Positions 6,987 to 58,143 of a DNA stretch of 64,000 nt are shown in pieces. This DNA comes from a virus. Its lineage: Duplodnaviria > Heunggongvirae > Uroviricota > Caudoviricetes. Below the pieces are notes generated by a model, which was not told the origin of the DNA, made no database searches, and saw only the letters and a list, made by a program, of their open reading frames with translations. The number at the start of each line of letters is the position of its first letter. Position 1 is the first letter of the stretch. The translations under genes were made by a program, and so were the position numbers. The DNA lies in the IMG/VR virus record IMGVR_UViG_3300012324_000010. The stretch is one strand, 5' to 3'.

Positions 6987-7448
6987 TTAGCTTTCAAGGA
7001 TATTTTGTGTGATCTCCACATAATCAACAGATTCTAGAACATCTACAACTTCCACATCATCTTCACCATGCACTTCATAATCATAAGATCCAGTATCTTT
7101 CTCAGTGCGGAAGACAATACCATGGAAATCAGTAATGCTAGCTCCATTGAAAAGGATATTATCAATCATGTCAGTGGAAGTAATGATGTCATCACTGTCA
7201 TTCATTTTTTCCATCATTTTCTTCCACTGCAAAACAACTTCTTCTACACCACCTTGATCAAACTGAGCGTTGATATCAAAATCAAGATAGATGTAGTTGT
7301 CATCAGAAAACTTTCCACCAGTTGCTTCAATGTCTTCAATGATCTGATCTTCCCAAATATCACTCATTAAGAAGATCTCTTGTGCAGCATAAAGGTAAGC
7401 AATCTCATTGTGGTTGAGATTATTGGCAATCTCTTGTGTAGTAGTCAT
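6987..7448 (-). CDS. acidic hypothetical protein under the repeated promoter module
   Basis: AAGGAG RBS; TTGACC-17-TAAAGT promoter. Confidence 0.85.
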   Translation of the reverse strand: MTTTQEIANNLNHNEIAYLYAAQEIFLMSDIWEDQIIEDIEATGGKFSDDNYIYLDFDINAQFDQGGVEEVVLQWKKMMEKMNDSDDIITSTDMIDNILFNGASITDFHGIVFRTEKDTGSYDYEVHGEDDVEVVDVLESVDYVEITQNILES

Positions 7449-7809
7449 GGTGTTTTCTCCTTGTGTGGTGTGTTGTTTTCCTCTTGAACACTTATTACTT
7501 TAGTGGGTGAGTAAGAAGTGGTCAAGTTGTGTGGTGTGAAAACACTCCTGAAATGGGGGGTGTTCAAATTGGCATAGTTTTAAAATCACTGGTAATATTA
7601 GCAGAACATAGCACTTCCATAATGCCATGTCCCTTATTTGGATACAACTGTAGCCCTAGCCACATCACGAGAGTGAGAGGTGCAGCCACATGCACTATGG
7701 CAGAGGTGAAGCTGAAGGTTATATACCTAAGTCTAGGGCGTACAAGAATTATTGTACACAGCACATGTGCTTAATGCAAGCCACCCCCTTTTTTGATGAA
7801 GGTGTAGTT

Positions 7810-8861: not shown

Positions 8862-9169
8862 CTACTTGCTGTACTTGATATCAAATACCTCAACTACAGT
8901 GCTATTGGTGTTGTTATCGAAACGGATAACAAATAGTGGATTTCCCTTAATACTGTCATTGTAATAGATAACACCAATAACAGAGCTGTTTTCCAGACTA
9001 TTTACTTCATAGTAGACATTTTTTACCATGGAAAATAGTTCAGGGGTAAAGTCAAAGAACGGTGCTGGAGTCTTAGAATCATCATCAGACTGCATGAGAT
9101 GGAAGATGGAATGGAAGTCCTCATTGTTCTTATAAGAGTCCTCAAAATCACCAGTAGGTTCAGCTAGTA
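8862..9169 (-). pseudogene. 3' fragment of a paralog of 11588-12082, truncated at the IS607 right end
   Basis: Frame VLAEPTGDFEDS...PFFDF...PLFVIRFD aligns with LSKPTGELEES...PFFDF...PLFIIRFD; 5' half not found at the other IS end. Confidence 0.7.
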
Positions 9170-9172
9170 CCG

Positions 9173-10831
9173 TTAATGATTACAGGACAATAATAGACAA
9201 GCTATTATCATCGTCATATCATTATTAGATAATACCTGTGCCAACTTAGTTAGCACTACAGTATTACTCACACCCACGGATCTTGAGTGTGATAAAAAGT
9301 CATTATTAACAACAAAAGTATTTACTACTGGAAGAACATATTTCTTCTTTTTTAAAGACTGTGGTTTGGGTCTTTTAGGGGTAGCATGAAACTTATCTCT
9401 ACACTTTTTTGGTTGAATGCTTCTAACACGAGTAGCATTCTTTTTCTTCTTTTTTCTATTCTTATTCTTTTTCCTCGCTTTCTTTTTATCTACCCTAGCA
9501 GCAATAGCAATACTAGCAGTATAATCCTTGTCTAAACGATCACCATTATTATTAACTAACTCTCTAGTGTTGCTATCATAATGTGACTTAGGAGCAGGGT
9601 TAGCTTCATATTCTTCTGGATATTCCCAGCTAGTACCATAAGCATCAACTTTAACTATCTTAACACCATTATTATTAGCTCTATGCTCTATTCTAGATTG
9701 TGTTAATGATTGATCCCATTTACCACTATTGTCTCCCACCCAAGACAAGTCTTCCAATTTGATAATGCTGCAATTTTCTTTTACAGCATGAGCTGTAGCA
9801 TCACGAGCAATCAACCAAGATAAATGCTCTTTTATTCTTGTTCTCTTGGTTCTAACATTGCAATACTCTTTGTCCAAAGATAACCATTTATAATAAGCGT
9901 CTAAATCACTATCATTGTTATTGAGCAACAGCTCTAAATGTTTCTTCTTGTTATAAATGCTATCAATTATGGTGTTTATCCTAGATAGCTTATTATTTAG
10001 ATGATTTATTTCTTTGCTATAAGTTAGCTCTTGTGAATACTCCCCTTGTGGGGTAATACTAGCTGCTGTAAAAGGTTTTATTTTCCCTAAATCAACACCT
10101 AGAATATTCTTTCCATCACTATCATTTACTTCCATAAAGACACTGTATCTCAACTTAACAGTATCAGTATCCTCATCATATTTAATAACAGGTTTTGAAA
10201 CTTTTGTTATATTGTTGATATCTAGATGCGATGGTAGTTGATAGTAAATATCAAACATACCATCATTATCACATTGTATTTTGACATGTACAATATTATG
10301 TTTTAACTCTTGTTTAACATTGTTATCACCAGTAGTATAATCTAAATCAACTGGAGTGATTTTAAAGCATTGTTCTTTGTTTTTCTTCAAGAACTTGAAG
10401 ATATTAACCAGTTCATTAGCGGTGGTTTTTATCTTATTTTCTCTAATCTTATCCCATAAATCATCACAAATATTATCAATGTTATTATCTTTTATGATGT
10501 CTGTGATTTGCTTTTTGTTATACCTGGAAGCATACTGTTGATAAGCATGGGAGCCAACCATTCTCCATAGTCTACTTTTACTTCCTTTAATATTCCATTG
10601 AAGATAGTCTGGCTTTGTTAAGGCACTGAGTGCATCTCTGAATTTACCTTTAGTGAATCCAAGCTCTATTAAATAATACACTTGATCATCATAGTCATTA
10701 ACTATTCTTTCATATTCTTTTGTTAAGAGTTCTTGTGTTAATTTAACTTTTGTTTTTAACAACTCTAAATCAGGACAATTGTTCTGAGTAAGCGTTATAT
10801 TATAACCCTGTGTTGTTATCATATAATTCAC
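9173..10831 (-). CDS. tnpB: TnpB RNA-guided endonuclease (IS607-associated) lacking the CCCC zinc finger, with basic C-terminal tail
   Basis: RuvC motifs LGVDLG, LEDLSW, LDKDYTAS. Confidence 0.85.
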   Translation of the reverse strand: MNYMITTQGYNITLTQNNCPDLELLKTKVKLTQELLTKEYERIVNDYDDQVYYLIELGFTKGKFRDALSALTKPDYLQWNIKGSKSRLWRMVGSHAYQQYASRYNKKQITDIIKDNNIDNICDDLWDKIRENKIKTTANELVNIFKFLKKNKEQCFKITPVDLDYTTGDNNVKQELKHNIVHVKIQCDNDGMFDIYYQLPSHLDINNITKVSKPVIKYDEDTDTVKLRYSVFMEVNDSDGKNILGVDLGKIKPFTAASITPQGEYSQELTYSKEINHLNNKLSRINTIIDSIYNKKKHLELLLNNNDSDLDAYYKWLSLDKEYCNVRTKRTRIKEHLSWLIARDATAHAVKENCSIIKLEDLSWVGDNSGKWDQSLTQSRIEHRANNNGVKIVKVDAYGTSWEYPEEYEANPAPKSHYDSNTRELVNNNGDRLDKDYTASIAIAARVDKKKARKKNKNRKKKKKNATRVRSIQPKKCRDKFHATPKRPKPQSLKKKKYVLPVVNTFVVNNDFLSHSRSVGVSNTVVLTKLAQVLSNNDMTMIIACLLLSCNH

Positions 10832-10886
10832 CTACTTGTGTCCACTGTTGTCCATTCTATGACATATATTATACCATAATAAAAAG

Positions 10887-11447
10887 TCATTTGTTGAAAA
10901 GCTTGTCTGCTTCTTTTTTGGCTCTATTTTTTGCAGAACTTTTACCATGTTGGCGATCATAAAAGCTTGTCATAAAATCAATAACATCTTGAACTTCGTT
11001 ATATTCTGGTTCATTGTTATTTGCTATAATGATATCCTTATTACTTGCTGCTATTATAAGCTCAGCATTCATTCTAGCTAAACGATCTTTGTTTTCTATG
11101 ACAATTGTATCAATAGTATCATCTTGCAATAACTGTACTAGCTTTTTCCTGTGTGGATTCATTCCACTAGCTATCTCTTCTACTGTTTTAGACACTTGAT
11201 AACCATTTTTAATGGCGTAGTTTTCTAGTCTTTGTGATTGTCTTTTCAAATCTTGTTTTTGATCATGTGATGACACCCTAGCATATACTGCTGCCTTTTT
11301 TGTTTCTTGTGCTTTTTCATCTTCATCTGGAACTATGATTATTCTTTCACTTATTCTATATGCTCCAGGTATTTTATTATCATCAAACCATCTTCTTGCC
11401 GTTCTGTAGCTTATGTTGTTCTTCTTTGCCCAGTCTGATAATCTCAT
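10887..11447 (-). CDS. tnpA: IS607-family serine recombinase/transposase
   Basis: N-terminal MerR-like HTH; YARVSS and ENKDRLAR motifs. Confidence 0.92.
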   Translation of the reverse strand: MRLSDWAKKNNISYRTARRWFDDNKIPGAYRISERIIIVPDEDEKAQETKKAAVYARVSSHDQKQDLKRQSQRLENYAIKNGYQVSKTVEEIASGMNPHRKKLVQLLQDDTIDTIVIENKDRLARMNAELIIAASNKDIIIANNNEPEYNEVQDVIDFMTSFYDRQHGKSSAKNRAKKEADKLFNK

Positions 11448-11587
11448 TTTTTAAAACCCTTTTGCTATATATTTTGTCTTTTATTGTCATGCTAACATAC
11501 TATTTGTTGCTTGAATAAAATACGGTTGCAACCCTTCTCATCCCTGCATAAGGGATAAGAAGTATTTAAAAGGGTTTTCCCAGGTTA

Positions 11588-12082
11588 TTAATCTTCCTTG
11601 ACACCAAAGACTTCTACTACAGGCTTGTTAGTCTCCTTATCAAAACGAATAATAAACAGTGGATATCCTTCAATACTTACACCACCACATACAACACCAA
11701 TGATAGAATCATTGTGTAGGGAATCTACTACATGGCAGACCTCATGCACCACATTGGCCATTCCAGAGAGGAAATCAAAAAATGGTTCTGAAACCTTAGA
11801 TTCATCATTAGGCTGAATGAGTTGAATAAGAGAGCTGATGTACTTGCTTCCCTTAAGGGATTCCTCAAGCTCACCAGTAGGCTTAGATAAAGTATAAGTA
11901 CCAAGACCACCAATCGTGGTAGCAACAACTGGGTGATTTCCATTGTCTAAGGTTACAGTAGGATCAATCTGGAACAACTGTGCTTCCATATCAGAATCTG
12001 CAGCATCATAAGAGCTGTTAATAGCTTCAATTCGTCCTGCAGCTAGAGCAAAGTTATTCATATGGTTGATGTCAATAATCAT
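11588..12082 (-). CDS. hypothetical protein (family B)
   Basis: AAGGAG RBS, promoter module, terminator-like hairpin at ~11535-11562. Confidence 0.85.
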   Translation of the reverse strand: MIIDINHMNNFALAAGRIEAINSSYDAADSDMEAQLFQIDPTVTLDNGNHPVVATTIGGLGTYTLSKPTGELEESLKGSKYISSLIQLIQPNDESKVSEPFFDFLSGMANVVHEVCHVVDSLHNDSIIGVVCGGVSIEGYPLFIIRFDKETNKPVVEVFGVKED

Positions 12083-12598
12083 GATGTTCTCCTTAGATGA
12101 TGTGGTGTTGTTTTCCTTTGAACAACTTCTACATTAGAGGATGGTTGCTAGGTGTTCAAGTTGCATGGAGGAAACTACCCCTATGTGGGTGTATTGTATT
12201 TATATAGAGGGGGTGTAGTGTATTTGTTCAACTATAAGTGGAATATCCATTTTGTGTCCCCTTTTAGGTGTTTCCCCCTTGTTAAAAACAACATTATCAA
12301 ACATATACAGAAATAGATAAAAACAAATAAACACAATCACTATCATTGCAACATAGTCAAACACATAACCACACAACCAAACATAGAAATCAACATATAT
12401 CCACATCCACCCTCTATAATGCTTTCTAAGAGGTTGGAAAATCTTTTAGGATGTATCTATCCTTACTTCCTTCTTCTCCTTCCAGGAGTGCTCAGAAGTA
12501 TCAAAAACACCCCTTCTACACCATCTTCATTGACATGATTCTATTTCCATACTAAGATCATAGTAGAAAAGAAAAACACATCATCACTTTCAAGGAGA

Positions 12599-23547: not shown

Positions 23548-24672
23548 ATGAAAGATACAAAGATACGAAACTTTATTTTGTCTTCTGGAGATGAAATTTC
23601 TTTCTTCTTCACCGCTTTGCCCTATGCTCTGGGGCTAAAAAAGATGAAAGATGTATACCAATCATCAGTAAATAAAGATACCCTGCAGGTGCAAAAAGTA
23701 CCACTGCTGAATGTTATTCGTGATTGTGATATGGCATGTGTTTATCCTACTAATGAGGAGGATAGAGAATATATTTCTGCAGCAAAAAAGAAGCTAGGTG
23801 ATTCTAGTGATAACTTCAATTCATTTATGAAATTTGGGCCTGCTTCTCTGATCAATGGGATTCTTAGCACCATCTTTGCTGTATCAGTTTTTACTCTTCC
23901 CATTGTACGCCTGATGTTTATGTGGCTTGATTATTCTCGTCCTCCATTGCCTTTTGAGGAAGAGACTTCTATCCAGTATTATGTCCATAATGATTTAATC
24001 TCTTTTGGCAATATTGCCTTTGTTGTATTCATTCTTGCATGTATCATTTTTCTTCTAAGAAGCATTTCGCTATGGAATGAAGAATATAGATCAGTAGAAG
24101 CATCAGCTCTAGCTTCAGAGCTGTTTCGCAGCAAGGTATCCATTGTCTATGATCGCAATATGGTCTTAGGAAGAACTGTTAATTCACAATATTGCCTATC
24201 ACAAAAGATTGTCAAAGATATATGCAATGATGATTTTTCTACTAGTGCAAAGCTTCTTTCCTGTAAGCCAACCTTTGATGATGTCATAAAGAAATTCAAA
24301 GAGAGAAATGAAGAAGAAACACCTTCTTATATCCCTTTTGTCTCTGATCAGCGAATTGGTGTTTTTAACACAAATAGCAATATCCCTGACTCAATTCAAA
24401 AGAAGGTGTATTCAACAGTTATGGATATGCTACAGCACCTTGTGTCTACCACCCCATCTTTTGCACAGGATGATTATGGAAGGAAAAAACTTACCACTTT
24501 GCTTACAGTTGTAGCATTGAAAACATTCTACAATGAAGCTCCTTTCATGCAAAAAGATCAAGAAATCAAGAAAGAAAATCGCAAAATGAAAGAAAAAGAG
24601 CGAAAGGAGAAAAAGCAAAGAAGCCGTGATGAAGTAGATAGCACCTTTGATGCTTTCTTTGAGGTGTTTTAA
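23548..24672 (+). CDS. membrane protein (two TM segments), hypothetical
   Basis: GAGGAG RBS; two hydrophobic segments; basic C-terminal coil. Confidence 0.8.
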   Translation: MKDTKIRNFILSSGDEISFFFTALPYALGLKKMKDVYQSSVNKDTLQVQKVPLLNVIRDCDMACVYPTNEEDREYISAAKKKLGDSSDNFNSFMKFGPASLINGILSTIFAVSVFTLPIVRLMFMWLDYSRPPLPFEEETSIQYYVHNDLISFGNIAFVVFILACIIFLLRSISLWNEEYRSVEASALASELFRSKVSIVYDRNMVLGRTVNSQYCLSQKIVKDICNDDFSTSAKLLSCKPTFDDVIKKFKERNEEETPSYIPFVSDQRIGVFNTNSNIPDSIQKKVYSTVMDMLQHLVSTTPSFAQDDYGRKKLTTLLTVVALKTFYNEAPFMQKDQEIKKENRKMKEKERKEKKQRSRDEVDSTFDAFFEVF

Positions 24673-24836
24673 TCACATGCAGTAATAACTAGGTTTCTGC
24701 AAAGGAAGAAGAAGTCTACAAAGACAATTCTTAGTCTCCTGCAGCAAGATCGAAAAATACCACAGGGTTTGCCCCTGTGGTATTTTTTGTTTATTCACAA
24801 GCAATGCTGATAACACTATCCTACAAAAGAGTTCTT

Positions 24837-25302
24837 CTACAAAGAATGTGGTTTGAAACCTAGTAGCATTCTTGTCTTCCAGGTGTAATCTGCCATGGTT
24901 CTATAAGGATCTTTAGATTCTAGAAACTTCACCACATCTTCTGCAATGTCTTTTCCTGACATGCAACCATTGCTTTTATCAAAAAGAAGACATGCTTGTT
25001 CAACGTCTCTTTCAATCCCTAATGCAATACCTAGCTGAATGCAATAATATGCTCTTTCATTGTTGAACTTATCACTATAGACAGATACAGGATAGGCTAG
25101 TGTAGAAATATCATTTTTCACAGAAAACATATTTTGAGGAATGGTGGTGATTTCATCTCCTATTTTCACCCCTTCTAGCAATGGAGGAATGACAGTGTTA
25201 TTAAAGCTATTTTCATCACTGGCAAGGTAAAAAAATCTCCTCTAAAAGATAAATGATATCCTCATTAAGAATATCACTGTGGAAAGTGTGATTGTTAAGC
25301 AT
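24837..25302 (-). pseudogene. hypothetical gene frameshifted at a 7-nt homopolymer (25229-25235)
   Basis: AAGGAG RBS + ATG at 25302 is 1 nt out of frame with ORF 24837-25181; deleting one base of the tract gives a continuous ORF. Confidence 0.65.
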
Positions 25303-25480
25303 GGATATGTTGTCTCCTTATCAATGGTTGTTTTTAACTATTATTGTATATTCTTTTTCTCCAATGTTCAAGTCAATGTAGTAGCACTGACACATTTGTG
25401 TCCCTTTTACTTCTCTTTTCCAGCTATAACAAAACACCACTAGCTATAAAAACCAGTGGTGTTTTACTCCCTGTTAGGTG

Positions 25481-26212
25481 TTAAATGTTCTTCACATCTC
25501 CTAGATCCATAGTGATATCTACAAAATCCTGTGCATCCTTATCAGGAATGATACCCACCCTATCACCAGCCCAGGTTCCAGCAATCTCCTTATCAGCATC
25601 TCCTCCACCACGAGCACCACCCTTGGTAGAGCCTGCAAGAAGGATAAATGCAGCAGTCATAACATCTCCACTAAAGTACTGTACAATCTGACGCATAGTG
25701 CGTCCTACACCTACATACTTCTCCTTAGTGTCATAGTTGACAAAAGCCATAACCTCATTGTCATCTAGATGATCTAGAGCACTACCCTGTGCAATGAAAT
25801 CACCATGATCATCTTCTACAAACTCCAAACCAGCAACAGCTTCGCTGTGATAGTTGTGCAGAGTAGTAATGCTTCCATCCATTCCCTGAATCTTAAGTGA
25901 GTCCTTGACAAGCTCCATGCCAGTGTTATCCTTTAAAACCTTGCGAGCCAACCATCCTACATTTTTATAGGAATCCATATCCTCTTGGTAGAACTCAATA
26001 GCGTTGTCTACACCTTTAATATCATCTTTTTCAACATAATCTCCTACCAAAAAGACACGCTCCCCATTCCAGCCCTCTGCAAGCAAAAGAGCTAGTGCTG
26101 CAGTGGAGTTGAAAGACATCCCCTGTTCCAGCAACTTGTTACCATTTCCCAAAGACTGTGGGGAATAGAAGAATCCCTTGTCCATATTTACTACGCTGTG
26201 GTACTGACCCAT
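25481..26212 (-). CDS. hypothetical phage protein (MGQYH...VFLVGDY, WAGDRV)
   Basis: AAGGAG RBS; promoter module. Confidence 0.85.
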   Translation of the reverse strand: MGQYHSVVNMDKGFFYSPQSLGNGNKLLEQGMSFNSTAALALLLAEGWNGERVFLVGDYVEKDDIKGVDNAIEFYQEDMDSYKNVGWLARKVLKDNTGMELVKDSLKIQGMDGSITTLHNYHSEAVAGLEFVEDDHGDFIAQGSALDHLDDNEVMAFVNYDTKEKYVGVGRTMRQIVQYFSGDVMTAAFILLAGSTKGGARGGGDADKEIAGTWAGDRVGIIPDKDAQDFVDITMDLGDVKNI

Positions 26213-26448
26213 TGTTATTGCATCTCCTTAGATGATGTGTTGTTTTCCTTTGAACACTTATTACTTTAGTGGATGGTTATCAGGTGGTCAAGTTGCGTGG
26301 GTGTGAAATACCCCTATATAGGGGGTAGGGTATATATTTGTGTCCCCTTTTTATATAGTTTCTTCTTATAACAAAAAACACCCTCTTTCAATGTTGCATT
26401 ACTTATACAGCATCAAAAGAAGGTGTGTTTTTCTGATTTTCACGTGCT

Positions 26449-26850
26449 CTATCTTCCTAGAGTTTTCCAATCTTGTTTCATGATTTCCCTTAGTTCACGA
26501 TCATATTTGATATTGAAAGTGATAGATAAAACATCAGACTCATTATCTCCCATCATTGTTGTATCTAGGTATCCATCATCAATATCACAGTTTGACAAGA
26601 CTACTCCTTCAAGAACCATCCTAGGATCCACATTAGTATATACATGCCTATTTTCTAGGTTTTCATCTTGGTAGAGTTTGTCTTTGACAATCTTTTCAGC
26701 AATCTTTTCTACCACCTGATTGAGAGTGTTATTCCTTGCAGCATCGCGCTTTTTGTTAAGATAATGAATTTCTTCTCTATTTTTTAAGATTTCCTTTTCT
26801 AGCTTATCAATATTCTCATTCAGCTTATCAATATCCATGTTTTCATCCAT
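26449..26850 (-). CDS. hypothetical protein, family F (with 36102-36488)
   Basis: AAGGAG RBS; shared ARNxTLNxV and LSxTFNIKYDRE. Confidence 0.85.
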   Translation of the reverse strand: MDENMDIDKLNENIDKLEKEILKNREEIHYLNKKRDAARNNTLNQVVEKIAEKIVKDKLYQDENLENRHVYTNVDPRMVLEGVVLSNCDIDDGYLDTTMMGDNESDVLSITFNIKYDRELREIMKQDWKTLGR

Positions 26851-26955
26851 TATTTTCTCCTTCTTGTGATGATATTTTGTGATTTGATTGATATGTATTT
26901 AAGGATACATCACACTGTGCTTTTTGTCTAGATTTTCTCATTGAATATTCCACGC

Positions 26956-26997
26956 AAAAAAGAAAACCCCTGATACAAGAGCGATCTCATATCAGGG
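26956..26997 (-). terminator. intrinsic terminator of the orphan omega-RNA
   Basis: CCCTGATATGAG-ATCG-CTCTTGTATCAGGG followed by GTTTTCTTTTTT. Confidence 0.75.
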
Positions 26998-27000
26998 AGG

Positions 27001-27147
27001 AATCTTTAAATCTATCTAACTACCGTTAATGATTACAGGGCAATAATAGACAAGCTATTATCATCGTCATATCATTATTAGATAATACCTGTGCTAACTT
27101 AGTTGGCACTACAGTATTACTCATACCCACGGATCTTGAGTATGATA
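27001..27147 (-). ncRNA. stand-alone TnpB omega-RNA-like gene (copy of IS607 element 1 right end plus new ~20-nt guide)
   Basis: 27021-27147 matches 9168-9294 with 5 differences in 127 nt; own promoter and terminator. Confidence 0.75.
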
Positions 27148-27153
27148 CTAATG

Positions 27154-27183
27154 ATTATAGCATTAATCTTTCATCTATGACAA
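27154..27183 (-). promoter_or_regulatory. sigma70-type promoter for the orphan omega-RNA
   Basis: TTGTCA-18-TATAAT with extended TG; predicted start ~27147, at the homology boundary. Confidence 0.7.
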
Positions 27184-27241
27184 AACCCTTCTTGACAAGA
27201 TAAAAAGTCCATAAAAGACTTTCTATAGTAGGAAATGTCAT

Positions 27242-27586
27242 TTATTGATATAGCAGTGTTTCACCCCAGGTGTTAGTGAATACCAGAAGAGATTTGTCTA
27301 CTTCTAATACAGTGGAAGTATTTTCATCTTTGACCTTGACAAAATCGTCATCAACTTCACATTCCACTACCACAAAGTTTCCTCTATCATCAATCATCCT
27401 TGCATTGTGATGATAATCCTCATTCCACTGCACAGAATCCAAAGTGAGACCATCAGTGGAATCTAGAATACTTTGAGCATAAGAAACCAAAGCATCATTG
27501 TGGATGAAATCTTTATTCTTAATACACATCAATGCTGCTTGTCGCATGTGGATAATGTTTTGTGCTTCCACTGCAGTAATGCTCAT
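27242..27586 (-). CDS. hypothetical protein
   Basis: GAGGAGGA RBS; coupled to the upstream ORF. Confidence 0.8.
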   Translation of the reverse strand: MSITAVEAQNIIHMRQAALMCIKNKDFIHNDALVSYAQSILDSTDGLTLDSVQWNEDYHHNARMIDDRGNFVVVECEVDDDFVKVKDENTSTVLEVDKSLLVFTNTWGETLLYQ

Positions 27587-27589
27587 TTC

Positions 27590-27799
27590 TCATTCCTCCT
27601 CATTAAGAAAGACCTCTACAGCGCTGGGTGCCCAGCCATATTCCACTTCACCATGTACATTGACAACATCAATGAGACGATCTTCTCGCACGTTTTTTAC
27701 AATGACTCCTTTGCCGCGCACTAGCCCAGGAAGACCTGCACATGCAGCACGCTTTTCACCTAGAAGACAATCAATCTTGTATAGCTTATAGTTTTTCAT
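27590..27799 (-). CDS. hypothetical protein
   Basis: AAGGA RBS before MKNYK. Confidence 0.7.
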   Translation of the reverse strand: MKNYKLYKIDCLLGEKRAACAGLPGLVRGKGVIVKNVREDRLIDVVNVHGEVEYGWAPSAVEVFLNEEE

Positions 27800-27877
27800 A
27801 GGTGTTTTCCTTACTTGTGATAGATTTTTCAATAATCAATACTACTTGTTGGTGATATAAGTCTTCAACTTAAAAAC

Positions 27878-28363
27878 TTACATTTCAAAAATATCCTCCC
27901 CGGTATCAAAGTAGCCATAGACATCATCAACAGTGATATCCCCATCATAGACCTGTTGGAAATCACCTGTAATGTCTTCACTAATATGAGGGTGGTTTGC
28001 AAACCATTGTTCCCCCTGACCTGTCATAGGGTAGACAGCATATTTGTTGTTCTCATCATCTTCTACATAGTAGAAATCATCATGCACAAGACCAGAATCT
28101 ACCAGCTGTGCAATGATCTCCTCATCAAGATTTGGGTTGATTACTACATCAGTAGCTTCATTGTGTAGCTCTACATAAGGGTTATCAGTGATAACTGCAG
28201 ACATTTCAGCTTCATCCCAACCAGGGTTATAGGAATAAAAGACTAAACATGCATGTCCAGTATCACCATAGGTATCAGCATTAACCCAGCAGTCAGTGAT
28301 ATCTCCCTGGGTGTTTTCTTTTTCGCATTCCCAGCCATAGGTGATGATGTCATCATTTGTCAT
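27878..28363 (-). CDS. acidic hypothetical protein
   Basis: AAGGA RBS before MTNDD. Confidence 0.8.
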   Translation of the reverse strand: MTNDDIITYGWECEKENTQGDITDCWVNADTYGDTGHACLVFYSYNPGWDEAEMSAVITDNPYVELHNEATDVVINPNLDEEIIAQLVDSGLVHDDFYYVEDDENNKYAVYPMTGQGEQWFANHPHISEDITGDFQQVYDGDITVDDVYGYFDTGEDIFEM

Positions 28364-28560
28364 GATAAGTTTTCCTTTCTTTTTATATCTTTCTTTGTAT
28401 CTATAACCATATCTCAAACATTGTTTATGCTTCAACTACAGGGGTGGCAAATGGGGGTGGGTTGTGCATTTGTGTCCCTTTTATATTGCAGAAAAAGAAA
28501 AAACTCCTCTTAAAAGACTATCCTTTAAAGAGGAGGAATGATAAAAGGAAAACATCCCTT

Positions 28561-28890
28561 TTAAACAAAGTAGTGGATTTCTTCCAAATCATCCAAAGAT
28601 AAGGTAGAAGGAGCAAAGTTTTCCTTCCATGCAATCTCAAAGAACTCTGGATGATCTTCTACCATATCAGCGCAAGAATCATACTCCACACCCTGATACT
28701 TGCGTGCAAAAGCAGTGCAATCAAACCACTCATTTTCTTCATCCTCTTCAAAGAGAACTACAACAGAAAAGCAGCTGATAAAATCTTCTGGAGCACCATC
28801 AGAAAGTACAACAGAAGTGCAAAAACGCTCAGAACCATTCTGAGTAGCAAAAGAACCAATCAGTGCGTAGTCATCAGAAACGTTAAACAC
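28561..28890 (-). CDS. acidic protein, family C
   Basis: GTG start after AAGGAG; APEDF...YQGVEY...PEFFEIAW. Confidence 0.8.
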   Translation of the reverse strand: MFNVSDDYALIGSFATQNGSERFCTSVVLSDGAPEDFISCFSVVVLFEEDEENEWFDCTAFARKYQGVEYDSCADMVEDHPEFFEIAWKENFAPSTLSLDDLEEIHYFV

Positions 28891-29104
28891 GGTGTTTTCT
28901 CCTTGTGTGGTATGTGGTGTGTTTTTCTCTTGAATACTTATTACTGTAGTGGGTGATTGGTGGGTGATCAAGCTGAGTAGGTATAAAATACCCCTATATA
29001 GGGGGTGTTATTCTTGTGTCCCTTTTTTGATAAAAATCATCCTCAATACAACAAAACACCACTTAGAAACAACTTTCCTAAGTGGTGTTTTCTAGATAGT
29101 AGTT

Positions 29105-29560
29105 CTACTTGTTAAACAAACATATCTCCATATCTCCTTGGAGGAAAGTATACTTCCATACCAGATCGTCATCATTGATCCACTCAATATAGGATCCATC
29201 CTCCACAAATGGTGCTAGATCTTCAAGGAAAAAATCTTCATCGCCCATTTCACCTTCAAATCCTACAATTTCTAGATCGCCGGATTGAAGAATCTCTGTT
29301 TCAAAACCCAAAGCATGCAAGATTTCTTCTGTGCTCTTATAGATTTCATCATAGTTCCATTCCATTCCATAAAACCACTTATTAGGATTAGTGGATACAG
29401 AAGTGGAATCTTGTGGCTTTTCAGAAAGTTCACCCGAACGAACGCCACCAGACTTCAGAACATCATGAGCGTTAAGCTCACATAGAACGTCATAAGCATT
29501 ATCAAGATAATCATATGGAATAACAAAGTTGGAATCAATGATGCGAATGTTAAAACTCAT
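29105..29560 (-). CDS. hypothetical protein, family E
   Basis: Tandem paralog of 29765-30226 (EKPQDSTSVSxNPNKWF, APFVEDGSYI). Confidence 0.85.
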   Translation of the reverse strand: MSFNIRIIDSNFVIPYDYLDNAYDVLCELNAHDVLKSGGVRSGELSEKPQDSTSVSTNPNKWFYGMEWNYDEIYKSTEEILHALGFETEILQSGDLEIVGFEGEMGDEDFFLEDLAPFVEDGSYIEWINDDDLVWKYTFLQGDMEICLFNK

Positions 29561-29764
29561 GTGTATCTCTCCTTGTTTGAGTGTGGTGTTTTCTTCTTGG
29601 ATACATCTTTTATATTAGAAGGTAATACATCCCTAGTCAAGTGATTTTATTGAAAAACACCCCTATATGGGTGGGTGGTATATCTTGTGTCCCTTTTTAC
29701 AAGACAAAGAAAAACTACCTAGAAGATTTTTCTCCTAGGTAGCTTTCTTTTTTAACTCTTATCC

Positions 29765-30226
29765 CTAATAAACATTGGGATAAAGAGTATCCATCTTTCC
29801 ATCATTAAAGACATTCTTCCACATATTACCATATTCATCTACCCAATCAATATAAGATCCATCTTCCACAAATGGTGCTACAGCTTCAAGGAAGTGCTTT
29901 TCATCTCCAGGCTTGTTGGTATCATACATATCAATAAACAAGTCTCCCTCATCAGTGATATCAGCGTAGAATCCTAGCTTGTTGAAGATTTCTTCAGCAT
30001 CCTTGCACGTTTCATCATAGTTCCAATCAATCCACGCAAACCACTTATTAGGGTTATTGGATACAGAAGTGGAATCTTGTGGCTTTTCAGGAAGGTTTGC
30101 TCCTCCACGCCTTCCAGTTTTAAGTTCATCTTTGGTATTGAGCTTGCACAGTGCTTTGTAAGCATCCTCTAGGTTATCCTTCTTGATAACAAAGTGCATT
30201 GCATTGGTGTGGATAAAGTATCCCAC
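29765..30226 (-). CDS. hypothetical protein, family E
   Basis: GTG start after AAGGAG; paralog of 29105-29560. Confidence 0.85.
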   Translation of the reverse strand: MGYFIHTNAMHFVIKKDNLEDAYKALCKLNTKDELKTGRRGGANLPEKPQDSTSVSNNPNKWFAWIDWNYDETCKDAEEIFNKLGFYADITDEGDLFIDMYDTNKPGDEKHFLEAVAPFVEDGSYIDWVDEYGNMWKNVFNDGKMDTLYPNVY

Positions 30227-30484
30227 TTCTTTTCTCCTTGTGATGGTGTGTTTTCCTTGTGAACACTTACTACTGTAATGGGTGTGTAGAAGGTGATCAA
30301 GTTGTGGAGGTGTGGAATACCCCTGAATGGGTGAGTTCTATATTTGTGTCCCCTTATTTGCACACCTTAAAAACATCCTCTATATTGCTCTCTAAGGAGA
30401 TAGATCTCTAAAGGTATATAAGTAATAGAAAAACCTCCTGCGTCCTCTTATAAGGAAACACAGGAGGTGCAGAGGGTATAATCT

Positions 30485-31033
30485 CTACATCTTTTCAGTA
30501 TAAGCAACTACATTACCAATACTACGGCGCAAAGCATCATCATAAACAGAAAAAGTCTTGTATTTTTCCACCATCTTAATCAAAGCATACATAGCTTCTG
30601 CTTGAAGATCTTTAGAAGCTGCAGAGAACTGAGAAATAACATCTACAGCTACTTCTTCTCCTACCATCAAAGCATCAGAAATACGATCTGCAATATTGTG
30701 AATACTCCTACAATCTAAAAGATAGTTTTCTTCATTGCTAAACTTTTTCATCTCTTCTGCAGAAATAAGCTTGCACATTTCCACGTTGAGATCAAGGAAC
30801 TCTTGATTTTTGGAGTTTGTCCAAAAGTTGGAAAAATCCATAGTCAATGTGGTGTCATCAAGATCTTTGTCCTGTGGAATAACAACTGACAAGCTTTTCA
30901 CATCAGAGGGAGAAGGCTTGTCCTCGTAAGAGACATAGTATTGTTGTCCTGATGGAGCTACAAGTTGAAAAGAAGCATTTTTGCACTGTCTAACAAAACT
31001 CTTGTCAATGGTTTTATCATCAAAAATAGTCAT
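30485..31033 (-). CDS. hypothetical protein, family G
   Basis: AAGGAG RBS; shares IAxxL...FxxAS...AM C-terminal helices with the next three ORFs. Confidence 0.8.
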   Translation of the reverse strand: MTIFDDKTIDKSFVRQCKNASFQLVAPSGQQYYVSYEDKPSPSDVKSLSVVIPQDKDLDDTTLTMDFSNFWTNSKNQEFLDLNVEMCKLISAEEMKKFSNEENYLLDCRSIHNIADRISDALMVGEEVAVDVISQFSAASKDLQAEAMYALIKMVEKYKTFSVYDDALRRSIGNVVAYTEKM

Positions 31034-43800: not shown

Positions 43801-46800
43801 AGAGAAGAATGATTCTCTCTTATTAGGAATACCAACATCTCCCTTGTGAGGGAAGACATCATAGATAACAAGATCTCCACGCTCATTTTCTGTACCGTTA
43901 TCTAGTCTAAGCTTGTAATCTAGAAGTGCTCCAGGATCAGTGGTTACAGAAGAAGTCCATGCTTTAGGATCACCCTTATCATCATATGTTCTAATCTGCT
44001 TTCTAGCACTCATATCAGAAGCAGCAGTATAGTTAGTCCATACATTAGCATAAGACCACTCACCTGGTCCAGCAGGAGGATTGACTACCTTGTTAGCTAG
44101 TTCTGTGTTCTGTGCTTTGACATAAACATCATTATTGATTTTACCATCTGGAACAGTCATACTGGTTTTAACAGTGATGTAACCAACACTGAATCTATTT
44201 CCAGGATTAAGCTCTTGTGCAGTAGCAGAAGATGCCTTAAAGACAATAGCTGTTTGACCTGTTTCGTTGTAGTTTTCTACAACCTCATAGGAAGCACCAG
44301 GAAGTTGGGCAAACTGTGGAGCCATTTCTACATTTTCCACATCTACACCAAGAGGAAGAAGATCTACCTCTGTAATATTAGTGATAGTCTCACCAAAACC
44401 TTCACGTGGAGTAAATCCTACTGTGTAGCGAATGTTGTCATCAGTAATAATACTGTCAACCTTATCCCCATTGGAATTGTATCCCTGCTGGGTTTTGAAA
44501 GCAACTATTTCTTGGTTTTGTTCTCTGACAGTCTTTTGAGCATAGACAGGTCCAAAATTTCCTTCTTTGGCATCCAATTGTGCTCTGTTGCCAAAGATAG
44601 TATTTTGCTTTTCATCACCATAGATAGGTGTATCAGGATCTTTGAGCCTAGAGGTAAGTGAGATAATATCACTGGTTCCCTTTGCTAGAGGATGATCAAT
44701 AAGTTGCATTTCTAGTTTATCAGCATTGATAACCTTATTCTTTTCAAAGGTTGCTGTTCTCTCAGAACCATCTATCATATGAGATTCTAGAATAGCACCT
44801 CTATCATCAATAGCTCTAACCTCAACCTTTCCTAGAGACTGTGGAATAGTCACAGTGTCATAGTACATTCTTGGATCGAGATCAAAGTCTGTGAATACAG
44901 CATCATGGAAAGTCTCAACAGCACTGAAGGGAATAGTCCATCCAAAAGTACCATTTCTCTCCAGAGAGTTGTCATAGAAATAGTTGCTAGAAGAAGGTCC
45001 ATGATTTCCAGTAGCAAATTTAGCAATAATCTTTCCAGGTGGTGGAGTGTACCTAGCAAAGTGATTAGTTGTTGTGTCAGTAGTGAGCATCACTGGCTCA
45101 GTATTAGGCTTGTTAAAAGGAACAAGTGTTGTCTCAGATTTCAGTGGAATGCGCTTATTTTCCACAGAACCAGGATAGCCCAGAACAAGAGTGTCAGTAA
45201 AATCAACAGACGTATTATTCCTTGTCCCCTTAAAGGTGACATAAGTACCATCATCACTAATCTTCCATCCTGGGTTGAGTTCAGGATCAAACTTAGCTAG
45301 ACGGGTAGGATCATTGGAATCATAAAGTTTAGACTTCTCGTGAACGGTGTATTTAGGAAGATATACCCTTGTTTCATAATCTCCTACATTTCTATCAAGG
45401 TTGATGTTTCTAATGTTGTAGGTGATAGTATTTCTGACTCTTTCACCTTCTCTATCATCAGCAACATAAGCATCAGGGTTTTCGCCATCATTAGACACAA
45501 CGGTCTGCTCATAGTCATCAATGAGACCATTCTTCTTTTCCCCATTAGCTGTCACCCTTTGATAAGGATTCCTATAGTATCCAACGAAAGAGTCAGGCTC
45601 AGAAGTTCTCACAATATTTCCATCATTGTCAACCAAAGTTGCTACAACAGGGAACTTGGTTTTGGAAGGAGTTACCTTTTTCTTGAACTTTACCCTAAAA
45701 GGAATAGTAGTAGACTGTGCAGGATTTAGCAGTGGCACAACAAAGGAGAAAGTATTTCCTTCACGCTTAAAAGTAGACTTATCAATGTTAAGACTAGATG
45801 TTGTAATATCTACAGAGTTTAGATCATAAACACTAGGATCTAATGTGAAATAAACCCTAGAGTTCACCAAAGGTTCAGTGTCATATCCAGTCCTGTCAAT
45901 TCTTACCCTACCTGTCATAGAGTCACCAATGAGATAAGGATCATCATTGTTGAGTTCAAGGGAAATATTAGTCTTTGTATCTTCTTGTACGTCGCTCTTG
46001 GAATAAACAACCTTTACGGTTTGAGTCTCTTCTCTAGCCGCTGTGTACTCAATGGAAGGCTCCACCGCCTTATAGCCTAAGTGCGCCAGGAACGGAGGCG
46101 TAAATGTCACCTTTTCATCACTAGATCGTGTTTCAGTAATAGATGGAGCTATCTCATTACCCTCTTCATCAACAAAGACATAAGTAACCTCTACTGGGTT
46201 AATACGGATAAGCCATATTGACTTAGCATTGTTAGGGTTGGTCCTATCATGAGTAATGAAAGTGATAGGCCTAGGGATGCGGGAAGAATTCACATCTGAG
46301 ATAAACTCACTTGTAAGGTTTTCTGAGGGAAGCGTAAAGATAAGGTTTTCAGGGAGTCGGTTGTTACCAAACGAAAGATTACCGATCGATACAACCTTAC
46401 CCCAATCATCAGGAAGCGCGGTAAGTTGATTATCATAAAAAGCCTGATCGTCAATCGTAGTCACCTCGTCCCAGCTGTCAGGAAGAGAGACGAGTTGGTT
46501 TTTTTGAAACGCAGATTTACCAATCTCAGACACCTCACCCCAGCTATTAGGGAGAGATGTTAGCTGATTTTCGGAGAATGCAGCTTTACCAATCTTAGTC
46601 ACCTTATCCCAGTTATCAGGAAGAGACGTCAGCTTGTTGTTAGAGAACGTGTAGTCTGCAATAGAAGAAACTTCACTCCAGTCATCGGGGAGAGAAGTAA
46701 GTTGATTTCTTTCGAACGCAGATTCACCAATCTTAGTCACCTTACCCCAGTCATCGGGGAGAGAAGTAAGTTGATTTCTTTCGAACGCAGACTTATCAAT

Positions 46801-52427: not shown

Positions 52428-54011
52428 TTACACTATGATACATTTGATATTCATTTTAAAAATGTCATTTGTATCATAGATAACTTTCATGCTGCCTTTT
52501 ATGGTCATACATTTACAGTCGCTGCTGCAAAATGCATCTAACGCTACCCTAGAATCATTGTTGTTCTGCGCAGAGCATTGTGTTAATGGTTTCACCTCTT
52601 TTCTATTCTTCCTTTTTGGTGTTGGTTTATTTTTTGTTCTGTCTCTTCCTGGGAACTTTAATGTTTTTCCAGTACCATTTTTAGACCTTTTCTTAGGTGT
52701 ATTTTTAGCATTTTTCTTAGTATTTCTCGTTTTTATCATCTTAGAAAAAGTGCTATAAGGCTTATCATCTCTAGAAGTAGTAATCCTTTGAGCAATGTTA
52801 GCAGCTGCATTGATGTCTCTATCTAATGTGGTATTACAAAAGTTGCATACTACAATGTGATATCCTTTGAAGGTTATCTTTCTTCCACAACTGCAACACA
52901 CTTGGGAAGTGTTATAGCAACTGGTTTTGATAACTCTTCCACCATTGAGTTCTACTTGTTCAGTAGTCCTTTTAACCAGTTCTCCTCTATTCCACCTACC
53001 ATTTTCCATGGTGTTTTTGATCCAGGATAGATCTTCAAAAACTACAATAGCATTTTCCCAAGCATAAGAAATCTCAGCGATCTCTTGAGCAGCTAAGATT
53101 GCCAGTTCTCTTTTCCTTTTGGAATTTGAAGATCTATGTAGCATAGCTTCATCTTTTCTTCCCTTATTTTGCAGAGAAGATACTTGAACATTAGACTTTT
53201 TGACTTTATTAGCTAAGCTATGAACTCTTTGTGAAAGTGTAGTAGAATGAGCTATTCTTTTCTCTTTTGTGTCATAGACAACAACAGTTGCATAGTTTGC
53301 TATTCCTACATCTACTCCTACTACATACCTATTGCTGAAATGAGAGAAGTTGTATTTATACACAACAGGAAAGGAAAACCTCACTTTACCATTTTTATCC
53401 ACATAGATAGATGGTTTTGCTATGTCATCAGCATTATGAAACCTTTTATCATAATCAAAGTAGAACTTGTACCACTTTCCCTGCACAACCAAATTCAAGA
53501 CAATAGTGTCATCAACTATATCCATTGTGCAGTATGCTTTATCTACATCTCCTAGGTTTATCTTTGGTGAAAGATTGCGTGGTTTATAAGATTGCGCAGT
53601 TCTAGACCAACCCTGAGAGACATATTTGCTTGATGTCCCTTCTACTGCTTTACATCTTTCAATCCATGATTTGCATTCTGATACAACTCTAGCTCCAAAA
53701 AGCTTATTGACCCTAGATCGTCCAGATCTCCCAGGATAATAAAACTCTTTTGGATAAACAATGTCTAGTCTTCTAGCTATTTCTGCATTGTTGAGATTGG
53801 ATAGGTTATCTTTCTTTCTATTTTCTATGAACTCATCTACCAAGTTTTTATTTTCTACTGTGATATTCATTTCTGCTATATCTGTAATAAGCATTATTTC
53901 ACTTTTAAGATCACTTAATACTTTATTTACATCAACAACTTGTCCATTTTTATCAGAAGCAGCAAAAGGTGAGGTGATAATAGATCTGAATAACTCATTA
54001 CTATTTCTCAT
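52428..54011 (-). CDS. tnpB: TnpB RNA-guided endonuclease (IS607-associated)
   Basis: VGVDVG, FEDLSW, TSQVCCSCG...CNFC...DRDINAA; basic tail with PTPKRK. Confidence 0.88.
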   Translation of the reverse strand: MRNSNELFRSIITSPFAASDKNGQVVDVNKVLSDLKSEIMLITDIAEMNITVENKNLVDEFIENRKKDNLSNLNNAEIARRLDIVYPKEFYYPGRSGRSRVNKLFGARVVSECKSWIERCKAVEGTSSKYVSQGWSRTAQSYKPRNLSPKINLGDVDKAYCTMDIVDDTIVLNLVVQGKWYKFYFDYDKRFHNADDIAKPSIYVDKNGKVRFSFPVVYKYNFSHFSNRYVVGVDVGIANYATVVVYDTKEKRIAHSTTLSQRVHSLANKVKKSNVQVSSLQNKGRKDEAMLHRSSNSKRKRELAILAAQEIAEISYAWENAIVVFEDLSWIKNTMENGRWNRGELVKRTTEQVELNGGRVIKTSCYNTSQVCCSCGRKITFKGYHIVVCNFCNTTLDRDINAAANIAQRITTSRDDKPYSTFSKMIKTRNTKKNAKNTPKKRSKNGTGKTLKFPGRDRTKNKPTPKRKNRKEVKPLTQCSAQNNNDSRVALDAFCSSDCKCMTIKGSMKVIYDTNDIFKMNIKCIIV

Positions 54012-54683
54012 GCTTTTTCACCTCTTGTAATGCATCATTAAGAAACCTTTTTATTTGCTTCCATCCTCTTAGACCATAAAACTTTCCAGAGAAAGAAGCT
54101 GAAAGACTCATAAAATCCTGCATAAGAACATCATGAGGTTCTTTAGTGTCATCAGAACCCAAAACTACAATCTTGCAGTTGCATTTTTCAAATAACTTTT
54201 CAAGATACACAAAACCAAATATAGCCAACCTATCTTTGTTAGTGATATAAAGTATTTTAGGTTTGTCATTCTTTTCTATCAATGATATAAGCTTATTTAG
54301 ACCTTTTCTATTTTCATTGAGACCTGAAGCATTGTCTGTGAAAGAAAAATCAGGTTTCCCATATTTTCTTTCCATCTTTTTCAGCTGTGTGTCAATAGAA
54401 ACATCATTTTTATTACTAGATCGTGCATAAAAGATTTTGACTTCTGGTTCTTGTTCAATTCCTAATCTTTCATTCTTAAATTGGACAAGATAGTCATAAT
54501 CAAAAACCTTTTGACCAGCAGCAGAAAGGGAATAGCTTAACTTGCCATCAGCACACCAATTGCGCACAGTTCCAGGTGAAATTTGTAAAATCTCAGCTGC
54601 ATCTTTTACTCTAATTGGCATAGTATATCTCCTTTTAGTATTTAGTTATATTATTGTAGCATAATGTAAGTATTTATGCAACT
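52482..54683 (-). mobile_element. IS607-family element 2 (ends tentative)
   Basis: tnpA-tnpB overlap; left end ...AGTTGCA resembles element 1; AACT shared at 52482-85 and 54680-83; excision gives a 46-codon plus-strand ORF from the RBS/ATG at 52410. Confidence 0.7.
54001..54621 (-). CDS. tnpA: IS607-family serine recombinase/transposase
   Basis: HTH; YARSS; DRLAIFG (usually DRLARFG); SFSGKFYG. Confidence 0.9.
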   Translation of the reverse strand: MPIRVKDAAEILQISPGTVRNWCADGKLSYSLSAAGQKVFDYDYLVQFKNERLGIEQEPEVKIFYARSSNKNDVSIDTQLKKMERKYGKPDFSFTDNASGLNENRKGLNKLISLIEKNDKPKILYITNKDRLAIFGFVYLEKLFEKCNCKIVVLGSDDTKEPHDVLMQDFMSLSASFSGKFYGLRGWKQIKRFLNDALQEVKKHEK

Positions 54684-56476: not shown

Positions 56477-57100
56477 TTATACTGCTACTCGCACATTCTT
56501 GTCAATGACATATCCATTAACATTCCATGCTGGATATTCTCCAGTGTAAGGGCTGTTATCAGGATACATTGCTGGAACATTTTCACCCTCTTCAGGGTTT
56601 CCCAAGCATTCCACAGTGTGCTCTTCCCAGCCCCTGATTCCACGCTTGAACACAGTCATACCTACCTCAACATCTTCAACAGGAATAATCTTGCTGCCCA
56701 AGAACTTCTTACCTAGCTGAACATTCTCAGGTTGAGCATTGTCAATAGCTTCTAGCATCTCATCAAAATCATGGTCATCCTGCTCTACTGCAGGTGCATC
56801 AATGCGCTGAATGATATCCCAGTTCTCATCTACTACATAGATACCATTATCACCTGGGGAACAAGCTTCTAAGTTGCGCGGATCTAGGGAAGCAATATGC
56901 ACAGATCCTAGCTTGAAGAAGTTATTAGCAATGGTGATAAGGGTAGATAGCCCTCCATCATATGCTTTCTCACCTAGTCCTTGTGGGGTGTGGAAGGAAG
57001 CATACTTTAGGAAAGGTGCTACAGAATCCATCCCTCCATTCCAGTGAAGTTCAATTCCTACAGTAGAGTTCTTGCTGGTGATAAGAGCACGGTTTCCCAT
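56477..57100 (-). CDS. hypothetical phage protein (MGNRAxI...LHWNGG type)
   Basis: AAGGAG RBS; promoter module. Confidence 0.85.
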   Translation of the reverse strand: MGNRALITSKNSTVGIELHWNGGMDSVAPFLKYASFHTPQGLGEKAYDGGLSTLITIANNFFKLGSVHIASLDPRNLEACSPGDNGIYVVDENWDIIQRIDAPAVEQDDHDFDEMLEAIDNAQPENVQLGKKFLGSKIIPVEDVEVGMTVFKRGIRGWEEHTVECLGNPEEGENVPAMYPDNSPYTGEYPAWNVNGYVIDKNVRVAV

Positions 57101-58101: not shown

Positions 58102-58143
58102 GTGGAAAACATTTTCATCATTGAGCATAATATGTGCTATATA

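Follow-up and report, generated by a model that had tools for sequence, protein, structure and literature searches.

The stretch of DNA analyzed here, referred to as the window, comprises 64,000 nucleotides (nt) of the virus record IMGVR_UViG_3300012324_000010 (Caudoviricetes). It carries a full copy of an IS607-family insertion sequence (IS) and, elsewhere, a separate repeat of the right end of that copy, which includes the scaffold of the omega-RNA that guides TnpB. Is this repeat a guide-RNA gene kept by the phage, a satellite of the transposon, or an inert scar? A first-pass annotation of the sequence had favored a phage-domesticated guide-RNA gene. From the comparisons described below, the locus is an internally deleted IS607 that retained the left end, a promoter-like site, the complete scaffold, and the right end, and lost tnpA and tnpB. 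We judge it somewhat probable, by a narrow measure, that this mini-element is a PATE-like satellite carrying only an omega-RNA, which is predicted to use the TnpB encoded at 9173-10831 in trans against vacant alleles.

The insert and its vacant alleles

The repeat (27021-27147) was confirmed as an ungapped 127-nt copy of the IS607 right end (9168-9294) that differs from it by five substitutions (96% identity). The RNA-sense strand of this orphan scaffold is the minus strand, on which all features of the locus described below are also located. The homology on this strand stops at the transposon right end ...CATTAACGG in both the orphan and the full IS and is followed by different flanks, as the first-pass annotation had reported.

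The same annotation had found no other IS sequence at the locus, which did not hold. The upstream 116 nt (27148-27263), containing the promoter, are homologous to an IS607 left end and the start of tnpA. In an end-free global alignment, this part scored 43 against the left end and tnpA start of L009, one of 23 metagenome-contig loci with relatives of the window TnpB, compared with 16.3 ± 4.8 for shuffled sequences (0 of 1000 as high). The TnpA of L009 is 73% identical to that of the window. The same alignment against the left end of the window IS was not significant (21 vs. 19.4, with 388 of 1000 shuffles as high). Local alignments of 27148-27200 with the full IS (87 of 200 shuffles as high) and of 27148-27266 with six left ends (30 to 179 of 300 shuffles as high) were not significant either, and an nhmmer profile of the six left ends did not find the orphan left part on the correct strand. 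The deletion junction reads TATAATCAT(T)AG|TATCA, compared with TATAATCATGAGATTATCA in L009, and the deletion thus runs from tnpA codon 2-3 to the first scaffold bases. The two deletion end sites have the letters T(T)ATCA in common.

The outer boundaries were obtained from contigs of public sequencing runs with related phages (X1 to X5 and X7). A 154-nt contig of X4 matches 26877-27022 and then continues with eight unlike letters, which equal window positions 27264-27271 at seven of eight sites. A 273-nt contig of X5 matches from 27265 on and is unlike the window before that position. Because these contigs break at two edges (27022|27023 in X4 and 27264|27265 in X5), we conclude that the window carries a 241-nt insert (27023-27263); the GG junctions and the length of the interrupted gene point to the same limits. 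The insert contains neither tnpA nor tnpB and no open reading frame (ORF) of at least 40 amino acids (aa). Both junctions are GG (...CCTGGGG|TGAAAC at the left and TTAACGG|TAGTTAG at the right). A left boundary at AGAAGGG (27189-27195), a motif also present in the left flank of the full IS, was considered and dropped, as X4, X5, and the protein clusters described next place the boundary at 27264.

The insert interrupts a gene of 114 aa (27242-27586), for which no family was found, and displaces its last two codons. When the proteins of this gene were clustered at 90% identity, 17 of the 18 clusters were 109 aa in length and ended in ...TW followed by two residues (AG, VG, DS, GS, AD, SS, DG, or DA), whereas the cluster of the window alone was 114 aa and ended in ...TWGETLLYQ. 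The insert thereby supplies a new seven-codon end (GETLLYQ) and a stop codon, and the product is 5 aa longer than those of the other clusters. One cluster (P0192) ends in ...TWGS, precisely as expected of a vacant allele in the lineage of the window. Read in frame, X4 encodes ...T W D S stop and X5 encodes ...T W A G stop.

The putative guide segment (26999-27022, with its first 20 nt at 27003-27022) occupies the 24 nt before the terminator stem. It begins with 7 nt that formerly closed the interrupted gene (its displaced last codon(s) and stop codon), and the remainder is 3' untranslated region. The guide bases in X4 directly follow the ...ACCTGGGA of this gene, and the terminator adjoins the vacant site in the same contig (26877-27022). 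As the empty site of the relatives has the guide and terminator directly after the last codons of the gene, the guide is evidently the ordinary right flank of the insertion and not a retargeted spacer. The terminator likewise is one that pre-existed as that of gene 27242-27586. An empty site in relatives was the pattern that the first-pass annotation had itself named as the sign of an ordinary flank, and it is the pattern observed.

The occupied allele was found nearly unchanged (element, promoter, and guide) in relatives from four studies (contigs X1, X2, X3, and X7). A 2241-nt contig of X1 spans 26800-27295 without a gap and with five differences, 27075-27256 is covered by X7 with a single difference, and X2 and X3 cover the region colinearly. 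The tentative RNA label of run X1 was given no weight as a sign of expression, and habitat labels were disregarded for runs matching only a small share of the sequence words. Since the insertion is confined to 1 of the 18 clusters of the interrupted gene, we regard it as recent and selfish and not as a phage gene that was domesticated.

The divergence of X1 from the window is unevenly distributed; a tract of low divergence (5 differences in 496 nt at 26800-27295) is centered on the element, against 82 differences in 2155 nt over the whole piece (26246-28400) of the same contig.

Transcription signals and scaffold structure

The promoter and terminator proposed in the first-pass annotation were both recovered. 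The sigma-70-type promoter TTGTCA-18-TGcTATAAT (27183-27154), confirmed as a sequence, matches the consensus at 11 of 12 positions plus the TG and is the top-scoring sigma-70-like site within 25000-29500. Sites with at least 11 of 12 positions occur only 10 times in the whole window on both strands (128 kb of strand). The transcription start predicted from the promoter position (approximately 27147-27150) coincides with the first scaffold bases, and the promoter is identical in the relative X1, for which no differences were listed over 27121-27295. The scaffold with the right end (27023-27147, 125 nt, ending in ...AACGG) adopts a three-stem fold and scored 134.5 bits with the scaffold model R1. 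The intrinsic terminator (26956-26998) consists of a 14-pair stem (26998-26967), which begins 24 nt past the repeat end, and a T run.

Taken together, the promoter, whole scaffold, guide, and terminator form a plausible self-standing unit for omega-RNA transcription, and this part of the earlier claim of a maintained guide-RNA gene stands. The part that described a domesticated gene derived from the right end only does not, because the locus is a 241-nt mini-IS607 with a left end and is limited to 1 of 18 clusters. The arrangement is a compact natural design, in which a 30-nt promoter precedes a scaffold of 125 nt whose 5' end is native.

Other promoter-like sequences were observed in the window. 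An intergenic module of approximately 55-115 nt is repeated upstream of minus-strand genes (7443-7560, 12099-12168, 26209-26324, 28889-29004, 30218-30333, 57092-63569, and others). It reads TTGACC-17-TAAAGT followed by an AAGGAGA-type ribosome site (repeat families D2-D6) and is probably the promoter class of the phage itself. The tRNA region (58308-58678, minus strand; tRNA at 58358-58441) has a cluster of consensus TTGACA-18-TATAAT promoters, two of them at 12 of 12 positions, and their 18-nt spacer resembles the style of the mini-element promoter.

To describe the scaffold as an RNA, ten right-end scaffolds were aligned (window IS, window orphan, L003, L008, two copies from L004, L005, L006, L007, and L009). 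RNAalifold gave three stems with 32 pairs, of which 19 change on both sides, where the structure was derived from the same ten sequences as those tested and these represent approximately three lineages. The pairing cells were filled at 95.9%, compared with 81.2% in shuffles (0 of 500 as high) and 35-59% when the partners were slid. The covariation indicates that the scaffolds form a genuine family of structured RNAs. The orphan forms all 32 consensus pairs and has no indel. The right-end junction is AACGG|flank in nine of the ten members, including the orphan, while the tnpB-only copy of L004 has AACG|A. The family was not represented in Rfam: no scaffold match, including RAGATH-18, was obtained in the whole window at the gathering score, and no RAGATH-18 match was obtained in 26900-27250 at E values up to 10. 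A search of 309,425 bases with R1 returned its ten training sequences only.

The first-pass annotation had regarded four of the five substitutions as compensatory changes in the orphan. When the substitutions were polarized using L003 and L008 as outgroups, the C-G pair of stem 1 proved to be derived in the full IS, with the ancestral U-A kept by the orphan; the G of the U.G pair was likewise derived in the full IS. The two changes that belong to the orphan itself make mismatches. As the paired changes are derived in the full IS, selection on the structure is supported for the IS copy and not for the orphan.

A second mini-element, target sites, and the proposed action in trans

A second, independent mini-element was found at L004:3-226 (minus strand), in which a left end and the first six or so tnpB codons are fused to the same scaffold start. 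Its scaffold copy (L004:3-118) scored 104 bits with R1 and lies 750 nt from a tnpB-only element on the opposite strand. The left part aligned with the left end and tnpB start of that tnpB-only element with a score of 48, compared with 21.3 ± 5.4 for shuffles (0 of 1000 as high). The promoter-like sequence TTGTAA-17-TGtTATAAT has its -10 box 6 nt before TATC, and this box aligns with the start region of tnpB, in which bases have changed. The scaffold is approximately 80% identical to that of the parent and keeps 27 of 32 pairs and three stems (z -3.3); the contig runs out before the guide is complete. That such units were selected and did not arise by accident is argued most strongly by the two independent deletions, which meet at one and the same base of the scaffold and both have a -10 box 6 nt before it.

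Beyond these loci, an exact search of IMG/VR with a 25-nt scaffold piece gave no match, a promoter-plus-scaffold pattern gave six matches, none of which continued as scaffold when read by eye, and a pattern of the L004 scaffold type gave none. The same tnpB-only element of approximately 1.75 kb (approximately 90% identical, without tnpA) is present in three contexts in L004, L005, and L006. The sequence between the L004 mini-element and the tnpB-only element (L004:300-880) is G+C-rich, internally repetitive, and apparently non-coding.

The mini-element of the window could also act as mobile regulatory DNA, whose promoter and re-used terminator alter the neighboring genes or the lengthened host protein and whose scaffold is a passenger. 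A strong promoter does lie between two same-strand genes, and the host protein does acquire the new C-terminus GETLLYQ. However, the 14-pair terminator separates the promoter from the next gene, and the scaffold is whole in two independent mini-elements; we hold this explanation to be unlikely.

The target side was examined through the flanks. The motif TGGGG (27264-27268) abuts the left end and is the likely target or candidate target-adjacent motif (TAM), as judged from the sequence and the shared GGG flanks. Left flanks ended in GGG in eight of eight cases (window IS, L004, L005, L006, L009, the L004 mini-element, the window mini-element, and the vacant full-IS site of X1). The vacant allele of the window lineage was reconstructed as TGGGG|TAG..., and the vacant alleles seen as DNA were GGGA|TAG in X4 and GGGC|TGG in X5. 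An IS607 element is described in PMC10690162 whose TnpA target and TnpB TAM are both 5'-TGGG, with a strict core of GG; its scaffold, which ends in ...CGG, escapes self-cutting, and TnpA in trans excises an engineered mini-IS that has neither gene. For ISFba1-type TnpB, AGGAG or GAGGG are given as TAMs (PMC11061315). The right-end junctions of the family, which all read AACG(G)|N, and the GGG left flanks agree with the published IS607 behavior (TGGG, GG core, ...CGG, and the mini-IS excised in trans).

A vacant site of another IS copy was observed nearby. The start of gene 25481-26212 (26190-26212, minus strand) is the vacant site of the IS copy of L003 and reads ...ATGGG|TCAGTACCAC..., with TGGG at codon 2. 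It differs from the L003 guide at positions 12-13, and the right flank of L003 matches 26209-25551 at 87.6%.

We then considered whether the guide addresses any other sequence. As the first-pass annotation had found by eye, no guide target occurs in the window; the 22-mer had no second match at up to three mismatches. The first 18 nt of the guide had 1 match in IMG/VR and 23 matches in 185,579 species genomes, which were spread over unrelated taxa. By our estimate, approximately 17 such matches would arise by chance, and GGG stood upstream of just 1 of the 24. A guide match with a TAM in hosts or other phages, as had been anticipated, was therefore not supported; the 18-mer matches were chance-like and no credible target emerged. 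One exact 22-nt match, after CCCTGG, was located in a Syntrophaceae metagenome-assembled genome (L048:297-322, minus strand). It was rejected as a chance match in an implausible host, with a chance probability that we estimate at approximately 0.1. This match spans a stop codon and an A+T-rich intergenic gap and is the sole one of the 24 that extends beyond 21 nt.

These results bear on the proposal that the locus is a domesticated guide-RNA gene with a spacer chosen to redirect TnpB to a new target (a host, another phage, or another element). The unit does have a promoter, a scaffold, a segment of 20-24 nt, and a terminator, and the L048 match would provide one possible target. Against this, relatives have this segment as the natural continuation of the gene that is interrupted in the window, the transposon ends and GG junctions are intact, the window and 18-mer searches gave the results described above, and the 22-nt extension in L048 is, by our estimate, approximately a 1-in-10 event among 23 matches in an unlikely host. 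The vacant alleles in relatives largely refute the retargeting, which we regard as very improbable. The only target supported by the evidence would be the vacant allele of related phages, in line with the ordinary homing logic of TnpB.

On the reading of the mini-element as a satellite, the following course of events is proposed. The mini-IS607 is inserted at a TGGGG|T site within the final codons of a phage gene. Transcription would start from its own promoter at the first bases of the scaffold, giving a native-like 5' end, and would end at the old terminator of the host gene, yielding an RNA of approximately 150-195 nt. This RNA would load, in trans, the TnpB of the full IS607 located approximately 18 kb away. 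The complex would cut the site where it is still vacant (TGGGG followed by the match to the guide), either in relatives that co-infect or in a genome from which the element was excised, and recombinational repair from the occupied copy would restore or spread the mini-element (retention or homing). TnpA could also mobilize it in trans. A role of IS605 and IS607 TnpB in retention and homing is reported in two preprints of the Sternberg laboratory (PMC10055086 and PMC10690162).

Several observations weigh against the satellite. The left end of the orphan is like that of L009 and unlike that of the resident IS, and the resident TnpA may not recognize it. A TATAAT is already present just before the tnpA ATG of L009, which indicates that the -10 box was at least partly inherited and that its position alone is no proof of selection. 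The orphan-specific changes are two U>C substitutions (alignment columns 46 and 111), each producing a C.A/A.C mismatch, and the minimum free energy is -30.1 kcal/mol for the orphan compared with -40.7 kcal/mol for the IS copy, as expected under neutral decay. Both vacant alleles seen at the DNA level are imperfect targets (A at TAM position -1 in X4 and seed changes in X5). The presence of the occupied allele in 1 of 18 clusters implies little time for selection. No other copies were found in the 64-kb window or in 245 kb of the loci of relatives, except for the independent L004 element, and there was no sign of movement after the deletion.

The same observations are consistent with an inert scar, i.e., a recent IS607 deletion derivative that is decaying, in which the promoter-like site was carried along with the left end and the RNA has no role with TnpB. 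The cost of the two mismatches (approximately 10 kcal/mol), the restricted occurrence, the single copy, and the inherited TATAAT all favor it. The divergence of X1, 2 listed differences in 241 nt inside the element compared with 2 listed in 223 nt in the flanks, also gives no visible sign of extra constraint. A scar does not readily account for two independent deletions (tnpA codon 2-3 in the window and tnpB codon ~6 in L004) ending at the same scaffold base, for TGnTATAAT located 6 nt upstream in both mini-elements, or for a box in L004 that aligns with the tnpB start region and has altered bases. Furthermore, the window element keeps its pairs (32 of 32) without an indel, and the L004 mini-element is still three-stemmed despite the divergence from its parent. 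We consider the scar possible and less than likely.

As a rather doubtful extension, we put forward that the satellite behaves as a gene drive when huge phages co-infect: with TnpB supplied in trans, it would cut every relative whose TGGGG|TAGTTAG... site is still vacant and be copied in during repair. If it were true, the vacant alleles that survive in nature (GGGA, or GGGC with seed changes, with protein ends such as DS, AG, and VG) would have escaped the drive through resistance, the tract of low divergence in X1 would be a co-conversion footprint, and the recurrent deletion to the scaffold start with creation of a promoter box would be a selected route by which IS607 sheds its genes.

The full IS607 copy and related systems

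The full IS607 copy of the window (9170-11531, minus strand) comprises tnpA (10887-11447), the tnpB-like gene (9173-10831), and the scaffold (9170-9294), and it is the candidate source of TnpB and TnpA in trans. ORF 10887-11447 encodes an IS607-family serine transposase (NF033518, 148.8 bits with a cut-off of 110; PF00239, 3.8e-18). ORF 9173-10831 (552 aa) had no match to Pfam, PHROG, or NCBIfam models. Its relatives numbered 36 in the protein collection, 3 of them with PF07282, and 253 in the representative library at E values up to 0.001. The RuvC triad (D247, E360, and D436) is invariant in an alignment of 16 sequences, and the zinc-ribbon cysteines are kept only in the most distant of these. 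The AlphaFold2 model had a predicted local distance difference test score (pLDDT) of 73.8, with a tail (466-552) below 50, and Foldseek matched it to Cas12f, ISDra2 TnpB, ISFba1 TnpB, and Fanzor2 at E values of 2e-13 to 2e-8. As the triad is invariant and the fold matches those of Cas12f, TnpB, and Fanzor2, we assign the protein to a divergent TnpB clade with an intact RuvC site. The first-pass annotation was thus correct in recognizing a RuvC-intact TnpB at this position with a 96% identical scaffold in the same window. The clade, invisible to Pfam, without a zinc ribbon, and with a defined scaffold family, would be new.

Three features of this protein (P0001) were observed in addition. The motif TSWEYPEEYxxNPAP stands in place of the zinc-ribbon cysteines, the ORF reads through the entire omega-RNA to 3 nt from the right end, and the tail (466-552, pLDDT below 50) is lysine-rich and predicted to be disordered but conserved nonetheless. 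IMG/VR contained no close relative of the TnpB, and two distant loci were recovered using the alignment. INPHARED phages had no match to 24500-30500 (near mode) or 26940-27200 (distant mode).

The full IS is absent from its site in two relatives, as the contigs show joints of 9171>11919 (X1) and 9171>11916 (X4). No cover was found on 9828-11819 at 85% likeness in X1-X4, a gap that alone was not taken as absence of TnpB.

Some peculiarities of the site were also observed. The joints, with 24 or 21 other letters between 9171 and 11919 or 11916, lead to a vacant site of ...GCCTGGG|TACTAGC. Two diverged copies of the 3' portion of a single gene stand on either side of the IS: one (11588-11919) completes ORF 11588-12082, and the other (8862-9167) is displaced to after the right end. 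This duplication is likely to have come from recombination inside the IS between two phages that carried it at neighboring sites.

The mini-element was compared with known systems. PATEs, which "often encode omega-RNAs" requiring TnpB in trans (PMC10055086), are minimal IS200/IS605 elements (Meers et al., PMC10055086) that resemble it in having no protein genes, in keeping both ends and the omega-RNA, and in depending on another copy for TnpB and TnpA. The parent of the window element, in contrast, is an IS607 (serine-recombinase TnpA, GG core, and TGGG-type site) and not a Y1/HUH IS200/IS605, and the element is located in a huge phage, has a consensus sigma-70 promoter abutting the scaffold start, and was seen as a single copy. 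CboIStron (Zedaveinyte et al., PMC10690162) shares the TGGG target/TAM, the GG core, and the scaffold end ...CGG; its TnpB is described as cutting the vacant donor joint and thereby retaining the element (PMC10690162). Unlike CboIStron, the window system has no group I intron and has another scaffold family and a TnpB clade of approximately 550 aa without zinc-ribbon cysteines, and its mini-element is natural and has its own promoter, whereas the mini-IS of CboIStron was engineered.

The ISFba1 IS607 TnpB with its RAGATH-18-derived right-end RNA (Ren et al., PMC11061315) is alike in having a guide RNA at the right end and G-rich TAMs by the left end, and its fold (8iaz) matches the model of the window TnpB (E value of 5.9e-9). 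The window differs in that its scaffold has no RAGATH-18 match in Rfam and its TnpB has no Pfam match. TldR (10.1101/2023.11.30.569447) also combines a TnpB-family protein and a guide RNA carried by phages. TldRs are described as nuclease-dead relatives of TnpB with guide RNAs aimed at host promoters (10.1101/2023.11.30.569447), whereas the triad of the window TnpB is intact, the transposon ends are kept, and the guide is an insertion flank, which does not correspond to a domesticated regulator.

The concept of such an element is already known for IS200/IS605 (PATEs) and for laboratory mini-IS607, and a natural IS607 version in a phage would be new. The literature search found no natural, IS607-derived, promoter-driven, guide-RNA-only element, with the supplements of the papers lying outside its scope. 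If the mini-element is active, it shows that a TnpB guide RNA can exist as a selfish unit of its own, parasitizing a nuclease encoded elsewhere. It would then mark a stage in the passage from transposon RNA to guide genes that stand alone, and such units would operate between huge phages.

Two further observations concern other parts of the window. A second, unrelated IS607-like pair (52782-54615, minus strand) comprises an ORF resembling TnpA near 54073-54615, with 28% identity to the first, and a stretch resembling TnpB (52782-53441; 22% identity); R1 did not find a right-end RNA for this pair. The region 46383-47648 consists of fifteen head-to-tail units of 69 nt that are 65-79% alike (family D1).

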